Made by a program: the position numbers and the translations under genes. A DNA stretch of 64,000 bases from Phycisphaerales bacterium (GTDB taxonomy: Bacteria; Planctomycetota; Phycisphaerae; Phycisphaerales; UBA1924): NCBI GenBank assembly GCA_029260395.1, contig JAJDDJ010000002.1:145155-209154 (forward strand). The letters are read 5' to 3'. This document shows, one piece after another, positions 20,802-27,609 of the stretch. How positions within the stretch are numbered: the stretch's first letter is position 1; each line of letters opens with the position of its first letter. Under the pieces are notes generated by a model. The model was not told the origin of the DNA, made no database searches, and worked only from the letters and a program-made list of their open reading frames with translations.

Positions 20802-21428
20802 ATGCCCCATGCGCAATACTCGCTGACCTGGACCGGGTACCCGGACGCGGGCGATATCCGCGAAAAGCAAGGCTCGCTTTGGGGGACCTACGCAGGCGAA
20901 CTGCTTGGCTCGGCCGGGAGAGAACTGCCCAAGGTCGGTCGAGTCATTGTCCGCAGCGGCTCGCTTGACGGACCGGCGTTCGAGACGTGGGGGCCAAAGG
21001 GCTGGGAGGCGCTGGAAACAAGGTGCGAAGGGGTCGCGGGATCGGGGGCCGAGCTCTTGGTGCTGCCGCACGCTGGGGACGTGTTGAGCGATGTCCAGCG
21101 GTGCCTGAAGTTTCTCGACCGCTGGGCGGAGGCGAGCGAGCCGATTGGGCTGATCGTCGACCCTGCCGCGATGATGACGGATTCCATGCTCAATCGTGCG
21201 GCCGACCACCTCGGGCGGATGGCGGCTTCGCTGCTGAGCAGACGTGGTGTGAGAGCGGTGGTGGTGCCCGTGGGCGGTGACGCTGAGCGAATCCCTGCCG
21301 GTGCCTGGGAGCCCATGCTGACAGCTGCCCGCGCGCACAGGGTGCCGGTGATCGCGGTAGCGCAGGCTGCCATTCCAGCAAGCCAGACGAGTTCCCAAGC
21401 CCCGACCGAACGCGATGAGAGCCCCTAG
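20802..21428 (+). CDS. hypothetical protein
   Basis: 208-aa ORF ending 9 nt before nuoC. No NuoA/NuoB motifs and no family recognised. Confidence 0.5.
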   Translation: MPHAQYSLTWTGYPDAGDIREKQGSLWGTYAGELLGSAGRELPKVGRVIVRSGSLDGPAFETWGPKGWEALETRCEGVAGSGAELLVLPHAGDVLSDVQRCLKFLDRWAEASEPIGLIVDPAAMMTDSMLNRAADHLGRMAASLLSRRGVRAVVVPVGGDAERIPAGAWEPMLTAARAHRVPVIAVAQAAIPASQTSSQAPTERDESP

Positions 21429-21437
21429 ACTGCGTCC

Positions 21438-22052
21438 ATGAGCGAAACGCCCAAAGCCAACTCCTCCGCCCAGGCAGCGCCTCAGCAAGCAACGCCTCAA
21501 TCGGTCTCGATCGAGCAGAGCCCGGTGCTGGCTGCGGTCAAGTCGGCGTTTGGCTCAGCCAAGCTTCGGGCGACCCGGTTCCGGGGCCAGACCACGCTGA
21601 TCGTCGAGCCCAAGGATCTACACGCGGTGATGGCTGTCCTCAAGAGCGATGGGCGCTGCGGATTTGACCTGCTCTCGGATGTCGGGGGCGTGGACTACCT
21701 CGACTACCCCGCCGAGACCATCGCCCGATTCGCGGTGGTCTACAACCTTGTCAGCACCACGCTCGATCAGCGCGTGTTCGTCAAGACGTTCGTCGATCCT
21801 TCCATCCCGACCGATGGCATCGTCGAAGACCCGGCGTTGTGGGTCGATAGCGTGACGGACTTGTGGCCCGGCGCGGAGTGGATGGAGCGCGAGGTCTTTG
21901 ACATGTTTGGCATCCGCTTCGCGAATCATCCGGACCTTCGGCGGATCCTCACGTGGGAGGAGTACCCGGGCCACCCGCTCCGCAAGGACTACCCGTTACG
22001 AGGTCGGGGCGAACGTGACAACTTCGGCGTGGTCGATCGCTCGACTTCCTGA
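21438..22052 (+). CDS. nuoC: NADH-quinone oxidoreductase subunit C (30-kDa subunit)
   Basis: VDYLDYP...RFAVVYNLVS...WPGAEWMEREVFDMFGIRFANHPDLRRILT...YPLRKDYPLRG matches the NuoC family. Confidence 0.85.
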   Translation: MSETPKANSSAQAAPQQATPQSVSIEQSPVLAAVKSAFGSAKLRATRFRGQTTLIVEPKDLHAVMAVLKSDGRCGFDLLSDVGGVDYLDYPAETIARFAVVYNLVSTTLDQRVFVKTFVDPSIPTDGIVEDPALWVDSVTDLWPGAEWMEREVFDMFGIRFANHPDLRRILTWEEYPGHPLRKDYPLRGRGERDNFGVVDRSTS

Positions 22053-22084: not shown

Positions 22085-25000
22085 TCACGGCGATCCGCGG
22101 AACGGGCCAGCATCCATGATGTCGATTCGGTCGTTCGCCAGATCCCAGAAAATGCGCCCCGCACGAATCGGCACGCCCGAGCGGGCGGTGTCGATGATCG
22201 TGACGTAGCCGCCAGGCCTTCCCATGAGCGTGGCCGAGGCATTGGCAGCGTTGTAATCAACGGTGTCCGCCAGCGCCTCACGCGTACCGCTCTTCATGGA
22301 GACGTTGCCCTGTGCGCGCGCTGAGCGCAGCTGGGCTTCAGTCGTTGGGTCCGCGTTGAGATCGCCACGCTGGGGGTCGAGCAGGACCGCATCAAGGCGG
22401 TCGCAGTCGATGAGCGTGACCGAACCGTCGCCGCGCCGGCGGTGGTGGGTCTTGACGTTGCCGATCATGGTCGCCTGCCCGGTGTTGCGGTTGTGAACGA
22501 ACGATTCGTTCCACGAGAACAGCGCGAGCGCCTGCCGCTCGGGCGGAAGCTGCTGGCGTTGGTCGCTGACCAGCAGCGAACCCGGACCTTGCACATCGAC
22601 GACGCCAGCGCGCTGGTCAAGCGAGACGATTGGGCCGGTGAGGCGCAGCGCGCGCGCCAGCATGGGTTCAGCGCCGGGCTTTACCTCGAACCGAGCTGAT
22701 TCGACGGCGGCCTGCGTCTGGCTCTCGCCGTTGGAACGAGCGATAAAGGTGAGCACCTCGCGGTCCTCGCGGGGGGCGTCCTCGCCCTCGTCTTGCTCGC
22801 GGTAGGGCTCGAAGGTGGCGGTCACCTCATCGCCCAGCACCGCGTCGCGGCGGGTGGGGTCGGGCGCGTGGACAGCCTGCACATCGCCCATGCAGTGCAG
22901 CGTGCCGGCATAGTCATCGAACGTCATGGACTGCGACCACGCAGCGGTGAGCAGGCCGGTGGTGCCATCGGGATTGGTCGAAGCGCGCGAGAATGAGCCC
23001 GCGCCCGCGACCGAGCCGTTTCGGCCCGTGCCGTCAAGGTCGATCACGTCATCTGGACCGACCGCGGTGATGCGCACGCCGTCGCGCTGGGCAACAGCGT
23101 TGGGGCCCTGGACGCGGACGCTCTGGCGGTCGTCGTGCATGAGCACATCTCCGCCTGAAACGAGCAGGTTGTCGCGTGCGCGAACGATCTGCGTGGCGCC
23201 CATGGTGTGCAGTCGCTGGATGCGCGCGCCGCCGTCCTGTTCGCCGCCTTGGCCGTCGCCCGGGCTTGCGGGCTTGAGGGTGGCGTCGATGATTTCGGCC
23301 TCGATGGTGTCCGGGCCGTCGTTAAACTTCGCGGTGCCCCTTGCGAGCAGGTCGGTGGGGACGGGGTCGTCGCCGTTGGTGCTGGTGTCGAACAGCACGT
23401 CGAGCGCCTCGCAGGTGCCGCCCGCATTTCTGCCGTCGCTCGCTCTGACCTGGCCCCGTGCGGCGAGGCGCTGGAGCCGAAGATCGCCGCCCGGCCCGTT
23501 GGTGAACGTGGTGCGGAGGAAGTCGCTTTCAAGGGTGGATTCGTCGCGGCGTGCGCGCACCGCGCCCGAGCACATGGCCTCCTGCAACACGCCGGTGATG
23601 CCGTTGCGATCGACTTCAAAGACAAGGTCGGCTTGCTCGTTCCAGGTGACGGTGCCCGATGCGGCGTCGTTTTGCACGAGGCCCGCACCGGGCGCGTACC
23701 CGATGCCGGTGTCGAGGTTGAGTTCGAGGCTGCCGAACCGTGCGAGCCCGTCGCCGTCGCTGACGAGTTCGACGCCGGTCATGCCTTGGGAGGCCATCAC
23801 GATGTGCCGGCGGGTGGCGTAGTAATCGAGCACGCCGGTGGAGCCGCGAGCCTGGGCGTTTGGGTCTTCGAGCAGCACCCGGCCTGACCTGCTTGCGGTG
23901 AAGCGGGCGGCGACCTCGTCTTTAGCGAGTTCCTCAGGGCGGGAGGTTGACGGGCGAATCTCGGCGACGCCGGTCCAAGTAAGCAGGATGTCGTCGCTCG
24001 CTGGATCGACTGCTGGGAGTTCGGGCGAGCCGGCGGGTGGCCCTGAAGGCTGGCTGGGCTGGTCTTCGCCGCTGGCAATGCGCACGGGCTCGGATGGGCT
24101 AGAACGCGTATTGCCGTGTGGATCAGCCGTAGGGGCATCGGGTTCGCTCGAGTTGCGTTCGAGAGCCCCATCGGCGAGCTTGTTATCAACGAGCCTCGCC
24201 CACAGGTCGAGCTGGTCGCCCTTGATGGTTCGGCCTCGATCGAGCAGCACAACGTTGTCCTTGAAGACAGCGCGGTAGAACGACTCGAGCGGGTCGGGCG
24301 CGGTCTTGGGCGCCGACAGCGTGGCGCCATCGGCGTTCGCAACAGACGGCTGGTCGTGCGGCGCCATTGCTGGCTGCTGGATTGCGGGTTCGGGTTCAGC
24401 GGACTTAGACCTGCTGATGCGCAGGTACTCGCCCTGCTGAAGGCGGAAAAGCTCGATGCGCTCGAGCGGCTCGTTGATGTTCATCCGCAGATCGGTGCCC
24501 GCGAGTTCACCCATCGTGGAGGTGACGACGACGCGGTCGGGCGTGGCGACCTCGCCGAGCGTGAGATCGAACGTAAGCGTATCGCTCTTGAAGGTGGCTT
24601 CGGGCTCGTCGTTGTCGGCATCGGCTCGTCGGCCCAGGTTGGGGTACCGGCGGATGACCACACCGCCGGTGAGCGTGCCCTGCTCGGGCTCGCGCGCGCG
24701 GTCGGGCAGCACCAGGGTTCCCTCGGCTGCGGTGATGGAGACGCTGGAGCCGTCTTTCATGAAGACCCAGGCGCGGGGTGTATCGACTCGGTAGAGGTCG
24801 GGGCCGATGGGGTCCATCTGCGCCGAGCGGAGTTCCATGGCAATGCGGTCTGGGTTGTTCTTGTCGGTGATCTGGATGAACAGGCCGCTGCCGCCGGTGG
24901 AGCCCGTGCCTCCGGCCTGGTTGCCCCCGATGAGCGGCTCAAAGAGCCCAGCCCCGGTGTCGCCGTCGGCCGGGTCGGGGTTGCTTGAACCGCTGCCACG

Positions 25001-25090
25001 CACGATGAGCACGATCATGACGGTGGCGAAGAGCAGGCTGAGCCCTGCTGCGATGAACATGAGCTTTCTGCGTGGATCGGTGGATGCCAT
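22085..25090 (-). CDS. 1001-aa membrane-anchored periplasmic protein, putative giant LptC/LptA(OstA)-like LPS-transport protein
   Basis: N-terminal TM anchor KLMFIAAGLSLLFATVMIVLIV. Lies immediately downstream of kdsD-kdsC, the position of lptC-lptA in the E. coli kdsD-kdsC-lptC-lptA-lptB locus. Recurring beta-rich segments resemble OstA modules (e.g. GNVKTHHRRRGDGSVTLIDCDRLDAVLL, AQGNVSMKSGTREALADTVDYNAANASATLMG). The product call is inference. Confidence 0.7.
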   Translation of the reverse strand: MASTDPRRKLMFIAAGLSLLFATVMIVLIVRGSGSSNPDPADGDTGAGLFEPLIGGNQAGGTGSTGGSGLFIQITDKNNPDRIAMELRSAQMDPIGPDLYRVDTPRAWVFMKDGSSVSITAAEGTLVLPDRAREPEQGTLTGGVVIRRYPNLGRRADADNDEPEATFKSDTLTFDLTLGEVATPDRVVVTSTMGELAGTDLRMNINEPLERIELFRLQQGEYLRISRSKSAEPEPAIQQPAMAPHDQPSVANADGATLSAPKTAPDPLESFYRAVFKDNVVLLDRGRTIKGDQLDLWARLVDNKLADGALERNSSEPDAPTADPHGNTRSSPSEPVRIASGEDQPSQPSGPPAGSPELPAVDPASDDILLTWTGVAEIRPSTSRPEELAKDEVAARFTASRSGRVLLEDPNAQARGSTGVLDYYATRRHIVMASQGMTGVELVSDGDGLARFGSLELNLDTGIGYAPGAGLVQNDAASGTVTWNEQADLVFEVDRNGITGVLQEAMCSGAVRARRDESTLESDFLRTTFTNGPGGDLRLQRLAARGQVRASDGRNAGGTCEALDVLFDTSTNGDDPVPTDLLARGTAKFNDGPDTIEAEIIDATLKPASPGDGQGGEQDGGARIQRLHTMGATQIVRARDNLLVSGGDVLMHDDRQSVRVQGPNAVAQRDGVRITAVGPDDVIDLDGTGRNGSVAGAGSFSRASTNPDGTTGLLTAAWSQSMTFDDYAGTLHCMGDVQAVHAPDPTRRDAVLGDEVTATFEPYREQDEGEDAPREDREVLTFIARSNGESQTQAAVESARFEVKPGAEPMLARALRLTGPIVSLDQRAGVVDVQGPGSLLVSDQRQQLPPERQALALFSWNESFVHNRNTGQATMIGNVKTHHRRRGDGSVTLIDCDRLDAVLLDPQRGDLNADPTTEAQLRSARAQGNVSMKSGTREALADTVDYNAANASATLMGRPGGYVTIIDTARSGVPIRAGRIFWDLANDRIDIMDAGPFRGSP

Positions 25091-25142: not shown

Positions 25143-25688
25143 TTACGAACGCAGCGAACTGCCCGCGTGGCTGGCCTCGCGGGCGGCATCGAGCAGGTTG
25201 CGGGCGCTGAGCAGGTGCTCGACCGCGTCCCGCACCGCGCCCCGCCCGCCGGGAGAGGGCGTGACAAAGTGCGCCCGGGCGCGGAGGTCGGCGTGCGCAT
25301 CGGCGGGTGCGATCGAGTAGCCCGCGAGGGCGAACATGGCCAGGTCGGGCCAGTCGTCACCCATGACAGCGGTCTCTTCGAGGGCGGTGCCGGTGTCGGC
25401 GGCAAGTTGTTCCAGTGCGGCCCGCTTGTCGTTCGAACTCTCGATCAAGTGCTTGATGCCGAGTTCGCCCGCCCTTCGCGCCAGCGCGGGCCCGCCGCGA
25501 CCCGTGATGATGGCCGCCTCAAAGCCGGCGTTCATCCACGCGCGAAGACCGAGCCCGTCGCGGACGTTGAAGGCTTTGAGTTCGTGGCCTCGGTCGTCGT
25601 AGATGATGGAGCCATCGGTGAGCACGCCGTCGCAGTCGAGCACGAGCAGGCGAATGCGGGCAGCGATGGCTGGTTCGTGGGCCTTCAT
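25143..25688 (-). CDS. kdsC: 3-deoxy-D-manno-octulosonate 8-phosphate phosphatase KdsC
   Basis: HAD motif LLVLDCDGVLTDG, KAFNVRDGLG, and AVMGDDWPDLAMFALAGYSIAPADA. Confidence 0.85.
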   Translation of the reverse strand: MKAHEPAIAARIRLLVLDCDGVLTDGSIIYDDRGHELKAFNVRDGLGLRAWMNAGFEAAIITGRGGPALARRAGELGIKHLIESSNDKRAALEQLAADTGTALEETAVMGDDWPDLAMFALAGYSIAPADAHADLRARAHFVTPSPGGRGAVRDAVEHLLSARNLLDAAREASHAGSSLRS

Positions 25689-26734
25689 GGTTCGTCGCTC
25701 ACGAGCCGGGCTGCGATGAGGTCCTGCACATCGAGCAGGCCGACGGGTTTGCCATCGTTGTCGACGACCGGGATCTCGTCGGCGCGGTGCTCGCGGACCA
25801 TCGCAACGGCGTCACGGCCGAGCGCCGAGGCGGGCAGCGTGCGCGGGTTGCGGGACATCACGGTGGCGATGGGCGCATCGAGCGAGTCGCCCCTGAGCAC
25901 CAGCCGCCGCAGGTCGCCATCGGTGAAGATGCCTGTGAGACGGCCCGTTTGATCGATTAACAGAAGCGCGCCGGGCCTGCGGGTGGTCTGCTCGGCCTGC
26001 CTGAGCGCCTCGGCGATGCTGAGCGTGTCGAGGGCGACGGGGGCGTTAACGCCCGCGCGGAAGCGGAGCAGTTCGGTGACGGGGCGAAGCAGCCCGCCGA
26101 GCGAGCCGCCCGGGTGGCGCTTGGCAAAGTCAGCGGTGGTGAAGTTCATCTGGCGTGCTGCGGCGAGCGCCATTGCATCGCCCAGCGCGAGCGTCGCGGT
26201 TGTTGAGGTGGTGGGGGCCGCGAGTGCATCGCCGCCGGCTTCTTGCAGGTCGCCCACATGCAGGGCGATCGTGGCGATGCGCGGCAGGGCGAGTTCGGTG
26301 TCAGCCGAGGTGCCGCCGGTGATGGAGATGATGGGCAGGCCGTCTTGGCGAAGGATGGCCGCGAGGTTGACGACCTCTTGCGTTCGGCCCGAGTGGCTTA
26401 GCGCGATGACGAGGTCGCGCTTGCGGAAACGGCCCAGGTCGCCGTGGGCGGCTTCGGAAGGGTGGACCGCGTGCGACGGGATGCCCAGCGACGCGAGGGT
26501 GGCGGAGAGCTTGGCCCCAATGAGCCCGCTCTTGCCCAGCCCGCTGACGAGCACGGTGCCCTCGTTGCGCGCGCACTGGACGATCGCCTCGACCGCGGCC
26601 TCGAAGGGCGGACCCAGGTCGGTGGCCAGGCGATCAGCCAGGGCGTCGAGCGCGCGAGCGGACAGCCGAAGGTCGTCGGCGGCCCGTTCAAGCGTGGCAT
26701 CGGCGGCTCGTGGGGCCCGGGTGTCGGTGGCCAT
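25685..26734 (-). CDS. kdsD: arabinose-5-phosphate isomerase KdsD (SIS + tandem CBS domains)
   Basis: SIS domain (VLVSGLGKSGLIGAKLSATLASLGIPS...ALSHSGRTQEV) and a C-terminal CBS pair. Start/stop overlap with kdsC. Confidence 0.9.
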   Translation of the reverse strand: MATDTRAPRAADATLERAADDLRLSARALDALADRLATDLGPPFEAAVEAIVQCARNEGTVLVSGLGKSGLIGAKLSATLASLGIPSHAVHPSEAAHGDLGRFRKRDLVIALSHSGRTQEVVNLAAILRQDGLPIISITGGTSADTELALPRIATIALHVGDLQEAGGDALAAPTTSTTATLALGDAMALAAARQMNFTTADFAKRHPGGSLGGLLRPVTELLRFRAGVNAPVALDTLSIAEALRQAEQTTRRPGALLLIDQTGRLTGIFTDGDLRRLVLRGDSLDAPIATVMSRNPRTLPASALGRDAVAMVREHRADEIPVVDNDGKPVGLLDVQDLIAARLVSDEP

Positions 26735-26781
26735 GGACAGAGGGTAGACTGCAAACGCTGGCCACCAAAGGAGCGAATCGC

Positions 26782-27609
26782 TTGGAAACGCAGGGGTACA
26801 CCGTCCGTTTGGAGTCGTTTCAGGGGCCTTTGGACCTGCTGCTGTACTTGATTCGACGGGCCGAGGTGGACATCCACGACATCCCGATCGGGACGATCAC
26901 CGAGCAGTTCATGGCGTTTCTCGCGGAGATCGAGCGGATCGACATGGACGCAGCGGGCGAGTTCCTGCTGATGGCGGCCACGCTGATGGAGATCAAGTCG
27001 AGGTCGCTCAGCCCGGAATCCCAGCAGACCGAACATGCCGAGCGAGCCTCCGCGACGCCCGAAGACCCCCGGCGGGAACTCGTCACGCAGCTCTTGGAGT
27101 ACCGGCGGACCCGCGCCGCAGCGGACGACCTCGAGCGCCGATTCGAGAGCTGGAAGGGCCGGCGCGGCGGTGGGGGCGCGATGGTCGGGAGCGAGCCCGA
27201 CGAAGATGACGAACGGGCGGTCGAGCTCGACGACCTCCACATCATGGATCTGGTCGAGGCGTTCAACACGATCATCGAGGCGGTCGATTTCAGCCGCATG
27301 GGCGAGCACGAGATCGTCGACGACGAGACGCCGATGGAGCTGCACGCCGCGGACATTGTGGACCGGCTCGAGCGAGGGATGGGCGAGGGCCATGGGTCGA
27401 TGCCGTTGGGCTCGTTGTTCGAGGGCCGGCGGCGGGTCGAGATGATCGGGCTGTTCCTAGCGACGCTGGAACTGGTGCGCAATCGGCGGGTCGCGGTTCA
27501 GCAGGACGAGCAGGGACGCATCAGCCTGGCGCTGCGCGAGCCGGAAACGTTGGACGAAGAGTCAGCGGCAGACGTGCGAGTCGAGGGCGCTAGCGCCGAC
27601 GGCGCGTGA
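26782..27609 (+). CDS. scpA: segregation and condensation protein A (ScpA)
   Basis: LESFQGPLDLLLYLIRRAEVDIHDIPI is the ScpA N-terminal signature. TTG 26782 lies 8 nt after AAAGGAG. Confidence 0.8.
   Translation: METQGYTVRLESFQGPLDLLLYLIRRAEVDIHDIPIGTITEQFMAFLAEIERIDMDAAGEFLLMAATLMEIKSRSLSPESQQTEHAERASATPEDPRRELVTQLLEYRRTRAAADDLERRFESWKGRRGGGGAMVGSEPDEDDERAVELDDLHIMDLVEAFNTIIEAVDFSRMGEHEIVDDETPMELHAADIVDRLERGMGEGHGSMPLGSLFEGRRRVEMIGLFLATLELVRNRRVAVQQDEQGRISLALREPETLDEESAADVRVEGASADGA

Follow-up and report, generated by a model that had tools for sequence, protein, structure and literature searches.

A giant LptC-LptA-like protein encoded behind kdsD-kdsC as a candidate single-chain lipopolysaccharide bridge in Phycisphaerales

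Within a 64-kb stretch of the genome of a Phycisphaerales bacterium (64,000 nucleotides, hereafter the window), a single open reading frame (ORF) of 1001 codons, P0001, follows the genes kdsD and kdsC on the minus strand. We propose that this giant gene specifies, in one polypeptide, the periplasmic section of the bridge over which lipopolysaccharide (LPS) is transported to the outer membrane, and we put the probability of this reading at about three in four. The first-pass annotation of the window, made from the letters alone, had suggested LptC and OstA/LptA domains in the translated product; Pfam, a profile search of the Protein Data Bank (PDB), Foldseek and the lack of separate lptC and lptA genes agree in supporting that assignment. 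The gene and the parts of its product (in amino acids, aa) are as follows.

22085-25090, minus strand: the giant ORF (P0001), a bitopic LptC-LptA(n)-like protein; 1001 aa by ORF translation, ATG start
24995-25075, minus strand: N-terminal transmembrane anchor, residues 6-32, N-in; a helix in both AlphaFold2 models
24416-24892, minus strand: LptC-like beta-jellyroll module, residues ~67-225; PF06835, TIGR04409, 12 strands and Foldseek LptC matches
24287-24415, minus strand: disordered Pro/Ala/Ser/Glu-rich loop 1, residues 226-268; low predicted local distance difference test (pLDDT) scores, variable length in orthologues
24188-24286, minus strand: long beta-hairpin, residues 269-301, containing Y272; conserved, pLDDT 95-98
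23993-24187, minus strand: disordered Pro/Ser-rich loop 2, residues 302-366; low pLDDT, many orthologue insertions and deletions
22106-23992, minus strand: unbroken beta region, the LptA-like repeat chain, residues 367-995; 49 strands (DSSP), repeats
23021-23368, minus strand: middle LptA-like module, residues ~575-690; family profile against PDB LptA/LptD
22220-22492, minus strand: C-terminal LptA/LptD_N-like module, Pfam match over residues 867-957; PF03968

Lpt domains and predicted fold

Family models place Lpt domains towards both ends of the protein. The Pfam LptC model (PF06835; cut-off 21) scores 25.1 bits over residues 98-215, and the LptD_N/LptA model (PF03968; cut-off 20.4) scores 22.0 bits over residues 867-957, the latter in the C-terminal part where OstA/LptA-like stretches had been picked out by eye. 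Among six orthologues, LptC was matched in five and LptD_N in three (best LptD_N E = 4.3e-6), and in orthologue G225 a middle module, at residues ~541-640 by approximate mapping, reaches 32.6 bits on PF03968.

The middle module was also recovered with a profile of the family itself. A profile of 6 sequences found no match in the PDB, and an alignment of 103 members, searched against all PDB sequences, was needed to retrieve LptA chain 8onu_A (E = 8.1e-6), followed by 7zax_A (9e-4) and E. coli LptA 2r19 (6e-3). The matches comprised LptA, LptH and LptD N-terminal chains, all aligned to residues ~570-690, and beyond these chains nothing was retrieved at E <= 10. Sub-profiles of residues 366-520 and 640-800 matched LptA and LptH alone, below significance. 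The long C-terminal region is internally repetitive: hhalign pairs residues 674-787 with 817-929 (97.5% probability), 398-489 with 626-724 (95%) and 595-701 with 893-998 (94%), and HMMER profiles of individual modules cross-match other modules inside the protein with 35.6, 27.3, 19.9 and 17.5 bits. A single tyrosine in the hairpin, Y272, is invariant across the 103 family sequences.

AlphaFold2 run from the single sequence gave an unusable model (pLDDT 34); with the 103-sequence alignment as input, the model was confident (mean pLDDT 86.9, predicted template modelling score 0.71). This model consists of a transmembrane helix plus ~63 beta-strands. The N-terminal anchor proposed in the first-pass annotation is borne out by a hydrophobic segment at residues 10-30 (~22 residues), directly preceded by RRK, and by the predicted helix. 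Residues 31-66 are disordered and are followed by 12 strands at 71-225 with pLDDT >90; from residue 368 to 993, 49 strands run uninterrupted with pLDDT mostly >90 (DSSP on the model). The beta-rich segments had likewise been described as split by Pro/Ser/Glu-rich linkers, which correspond to the two length-variable loops at 226-268 and 302-366, where pLDDT falls to 46-53 over residues 231-260 (loop 1) and to about 41-57 over 311-360 (loop 2).

Compared with the PDB by Foldseek, the predicted fold is that of the Lpt beta-jellyroll. Matches with a probability of 1.0 included LptD (9kn3_A, E = 3.7e-7), LptC within LptB2FGC (6mit_C), LptH and E. coli LptA, the last with TM-scores of 0.71 for 2r19_A (root-mean-square deviation 3.3) and 0.81 for 2r1a_H. 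LptC structures 4b54 and 3my2 were retrieved at the same probability with TM-scores of ~0.7, and LptC chains ranged from 0.56 to 0.71.

The giant protein thus resembles several known Lpt components, each in part. With LptC (E. coli YrbK; PF06835, TIGR04409; PDB 3MY2, 4B54 and 6MIT chain C) it shares a single N-in transmembrane anchor, a membrane-proximal beta-jellyroll matched by both sequence and fold, and a gene position directly after kdsD-kdsC, whereas its length of 1001 residues compares with ~190 for LptC, and ~800 further residues consist of Lpt-fold modules. Resemblance to LptA (E. coli YhbN; PF03968, TIGR03002; PDB 2R19/2R1A) and Pseudomonas aeruginosa LptH (4UU4) lies in the middle and C-terminal modules, with a profile E value of 8e-6 and TM-scores up to 0.81, and the repeats mimic a head-to-tail LptA oligomer. 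LptA is a secreted, self-associating 16-strand monomer, whereas here covalent links tie the modules to one another and to the anchor, the gene sets their number, and some strands, at 13-19 residues, are much longer. The N-terminal jellyroll of LptD (PDB 4Q35, 5IV9, 9KN3) has the same OstA-clan fold and supplied the top Foldseek matches, but the giant protein lacks an outer-membrane beta-barrel, and a separate LptD is encoded on another contig.

E. coli LptA contains 16 strands (PDB 2R19). Counted in strands, of which 63 are modelled, the chain would correspond to about four LptA units, and counted in structured residues (~815) to about five or six. A bridge of four jellyrolls has been estimated at ~16 nm (PMC5575297), and on that scale a chain of ~4-6 LptA equivalents could therefore reach ~16-24 nm if straight. 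The disordered loops could be true hinges, or no more than insertions that separate successive hairpins.

Lpt gene complement, family and genomic setting

The genome (3.2 Mb in 23 contigs, 93% complete, with the window on contig 2) encodes the other parts of an LPS export pathway. Both lptF (559 aa) and lptG (~380 aa from reading of the ORF) lie on contig 9, lptB (313 bits) is located ~5 kb away from them, an LptD-like gene of ~1165 aa is found on contig 13, and lpxC and waaA are present. In a genome-wide search with PF06835, the giant ORF was the sole LptC match, and a search of the genome with PF03968 returned no match at a genome-wide E <= 0.01. Eight lineage-specific module hidden Markov models (HMMs), run against 29,804 six-frame ORFs, identified no further ORF, all other matches having E >= 0.17. 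The ORFs beside lptB on contig 9, read without a Pfam scan, appear to encode unrelated membrane or other proteins, and none of them was recognised as lptA- or lptC-like.

When PF03968 was run on 61 genomes of the order, the matches lay in frames of ~740-1160 aa and none in a complete short frame of LptA size; the exceptions to these lengths were a single frame truncated by a contig end and a single match below significance. Separate canonical lptC or lptA genes, which would have spoken against the domain reading, were found neither elsewhere in this genome nor in the 60 others of the same order.

The giant ORF is conserved end to end among relatives down to 25-30% identity, and is on this ground a real gene. 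A word-indexed search yielded 7 relatives, and a HMMER search through 1.84 billion cluster representatives found at least 1625 clusters (50% identity) with E <= 1e-3, of which 711 reach E <= 1e-30. Among the best 150 of the 1625, nearly all are ~950-1200 aa long, and most are matched from end to end. The family occurs in named genome records of Phycisphaeraceae metagenome-assembled genomes, Tepidisphaera and Phycisphaera mikurensis, and every member with a source name is called 'hypothetical protein'. When the family profile was searched against 401 Planctomycetota genomes, 15 of the 16 genomes of the same order were matched and none outside the order at E <= 1e-5. A 956-aa protein of another Phycisphaerae order is collinearly homologous over residues 98-557 (hhalign 97.8%).

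The gene neighbourhood is as follows.

25143-25688, minus strand: kdsC, 3-deoxy-D-manno-octulosonate (Kdo)-8-phosphate phosphatase; TIGR01670, 144.8 bits
25685-26734, minus strand: kdsD/kpsF, arabinose-5-phosphate isomerase with SIS and CBS domains; TIGR00393, 215 bits
21438-22052, plus strand: nuoC, the convergent neighbour downstream of the giant ORF

In E. coli and other Proteobacteria the gene order is kdsD-kdsC-lptC-lptA-lptB. The giant ORF begins 52 nt after kdsC on the same strand, as the first-pass annotation had stated, with coordinates and TIGR matches in agreement, and an AGGA motif stands ~10 nt 5' of its ATG. We looked for promoter- or terminator-like sites in this gap and saw none; the giant gene is therefore probably co-transcribed with kdsC, and with kdsD. 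The annotation was also correct in naming a convergent nuoC as the next gene and in finding no lptB behind the ORF, lptB being on contig 9. An Rfam scan of the 64-kb window returned no match.

Synteny with the Kdo genes extends to relatives. A survey of homologous loci, also proposed in the annotation, found kdsC as the immediate upstream gene of the orthologue in 12 of 19 related loci, and kdsD alone in one more, with orthologue identity down to ~25%; in the Tepidisphaera and P. mikurensis loci, neither kdsC nor kdsD was found within the flanks examined. On the other side of the giant gene, nuoC is paired with an ORF of 208 aa (window 20802-22052), and this pair, convergent with the giant gene, is kept beside it in four related loci (L013, L014, L015 and L018). 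An ORF at 26710-27609 on the plus strand is divergent from kdsD; it was called scpA-like from reading of its sequence, and an ORF so read adjoins kdsD in five related loci as well.

Two of the other Lpt genes are longer than in E. coli. The LptD-like gene (C13:599133-602633, minus strand, covered in part by locus L004) encodes ~1165 aa, compared with 784 in E. coli, and its product begins with a signal peptide and a short beta-rich piece, after which ~170 aa of Pro/Ala-rich low-complexity sequence precede the jellyroll and the barrel. The Pfam LptD match is confined to its residues 675-948, and its N-terminal hairpin compared with the giant-protein hairpin at 269-301 gave a non-significant E of 0.26. 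LptF (C9:294135-295862, plus strand, locus L002), at ~559 aa, exceeds E. coli LptF by ~200 residues, the extra length lying in the periplasmic domain between the transmembrane segments; LptG (~380 aa) is of normal size, and a gene for a glycosyltransferase-like membrane protein lies between lptF and lptG.

Fused LptC-LptA proteins in other Planctomycetota

Across 251 Planctomycetota genomes, Pfam LptC falls nearly always in long open frames: those of one family have ~660 aa, those outside it 500-1700 aa, and the sole short frame measures 178 aa. Six of these proteins were read individually. Two of 630-664 aa carry LptC and three LptD_N stretches (72-78 bits), one of 1112 aa carries LptC and two LptD_N stretches, and one of 981 aa carries LptC with an LptD_N match that is only sub-threshold; one of 956 aa shows LptC alone by Pfam. 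From these frames we conclude, on the strength of their domain matches, that the fused LptC-LptA(n) architecture is phylum-wide in Planctomycetota. The sixth, an ORF of 1705 aa (L036:2776-7890, genome G069, from another Planctomycetota family), has an N-terminal anchor, an LptC-like module just under the cut-off (20.7 bits) and a C-terminal DUF3769/LptD-like region, and may represent a single chain from inner-membrane anchor to outer-membrane barrel.

The fusions of 630-664 and 981-1112 aa (L033, L037, L034 and L035) have the same transmembrane anchor, LptC module and several LptA modules as the giant protein. They differ in being matched far more clearly by Pfam, at 55-78 bits for LptD_N and 37-69 bits for LptC; a genome search with the Phycisphaerales profile failed to retrieve them, and one aligns with that family at just 84% hhalign probability. 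The Phycisphaerales family is the most divergent branch seen here, and the locus in the window is one instance of a recurring architecture.

The component families are well known, and the new element is their fused multi-module arrangement. Natural LptC-LptA fusions in Planctomycetota are not described in the literature searched, in which few subscription journals were covered and whose silence is weak evidence. In a 2012 survey, the outer-membrane markers sought in planctomycetes were LptD, BamA and TonB alone (PMC3422733).

Proposed LPS path and alternative explanations

The giant protein would stand in for both LptC and the self-associating LptA subunits, for which no separate genes were found in the lineage. 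By analogy with LptC, its transmembrane helix would anchor the chain in the inner membrane, and the adjacent LptC-like jellyroll would dock on the LptB2FG extractor and take up LPS. Beyond the two loops that flank the conserved hairpin, ~630 residues of LptA-like repeats would prolong the hydrophobic groove, along which LPS would slide from one covalently linked module to the next, over perhaps ~4-6 LptA equivalents in the whole chain, until the last module passed it to the N-terminal jellyroll of LptD. Such a fusion would fix the stoichiometry of the bridge and make LptA self-assembly unnecessary. In proposing this path we infer LPS binding, docking to LptF/G and LptD, continuity of the groove and physical length from homology and the model.

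Several observations weigh against this reading. Both Pfam matches are marginal, lying just over their gathering cut-offs, and the equivalog models remain below theirs, with 27.1 bits for TIGR04409 (LptC, cut-off 38) and 12.2 bits for TIGR03002 (LptA, cut-off 71.7). The disordered loops of 43 and 65 residues break the chain and may also interrupt the presumed groove, and neither lptB nor lptFG is adjacent to the giant gene; nor does lptA-lptB follow it, as it follows lptC in the Proteobacterial order. An incomplete genome, together with a Pfam LptA model that is weak in this lineage, leaves room for a very divergent small LptA. This last point is the basis of an alternative in which the protein is only the lineage's LptC, an anchored LPS receiver with a long beta-rich extension, and a separate divergent LptA builds the rest of the bridge. 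Such an LptA could sit in the missing 7% of the genome, and PF03968 is insensitive here, exceeding its cut-off in just 10 of the 61 genomes of the order. We nevertheless think this explanation unlikely: the lineage's own module HMMs single out no other ORF, a short LptA frame occurs in none of the 60 related genomes, several of which are closed, and the extension itself resembles LptA in sequence and fold.

The separation of the gene from lptB and lptFG would also fit a protein that uses the Lpt fold for something other than LPS, as an envelope tether or spacer, or as a carrier of lipoproteins or another glycolipid. Two reports link Lpt-like systems to surface sorting of lipoproteins (PMC12065857; bioRxiv 10.1101/2022.12.21.521298). 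Yet the gene stands behind the Kdo precursor genes kdsD-kdsC, an arrangement shared, as far as kdsC is concerned, by most of the related loci, and its product is the only LptC/LptA candidate in a genome whose lpxC, waaA, lptB, lptF/G and lptD call for such a bridge; a role outside LPS transport is in our view improbable. Least credible, and hardly to be expected, is that the protein is an unrelated beta-rich envelope protein, such as an AsmA/TamB-type bridge, an adhesin or a beta-solenoid, and matches Lpt families by chance. The narrow Pfam scores would allow this, and Foldseek also listed the large beta-rich Tc toxin shell and teneurin, at low probability, but Pfam, the PDB profile, Foldseek (probability 1.0, TM-scores of 0.6-0.8 on LptA and LptC chains) and synteny all indicate Lpt. 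No AsmA/DUF490-type model was found in the protein (Pfam and NCBIfam, E <= 1), and no AsmA/TamB-type structure was among the listed Foldseek matches. AsmA/TamB and adhesin readings, for which the Pfam, PDB profile and Foldseek results contained no match, were rejected.

A single-chain LPS bridge thus remains our preferred reading. We also regard it as possible, while inclining against it, that the whole trans-envelope LPS machine of Phycisphaerales has been lengthened and hard-wired, with a gene-fixed LptC-LptA(n) chain replacing the variable LptA oligomer, further length contributed by LptF (~200 additional residues) and LptD (~370 additional N-terminal residues), and the total set genetically, possibly for a wide periplasm. 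If this is true, the lineage would constitute a natural experiment on how many jellyrolls an Lpt bridge needs.

The stoichiometry and dynamics of LptA within the E. coli LPS bridge are still debated, and a dynamic assembly that depends on the width of the periplasm has been proposed (PMC5575297). A natural single-chain bridge with a fixed number of modules is a well-defined target for structural studies, and through it bridge length could be related to envelope geometry. The fusion also explains why lptC and lptA seem to be 'missing' in genome surveys of Planctomycetota, and under our reading a large family whose members, where named, are all 'hypothetical protein' gains a function.

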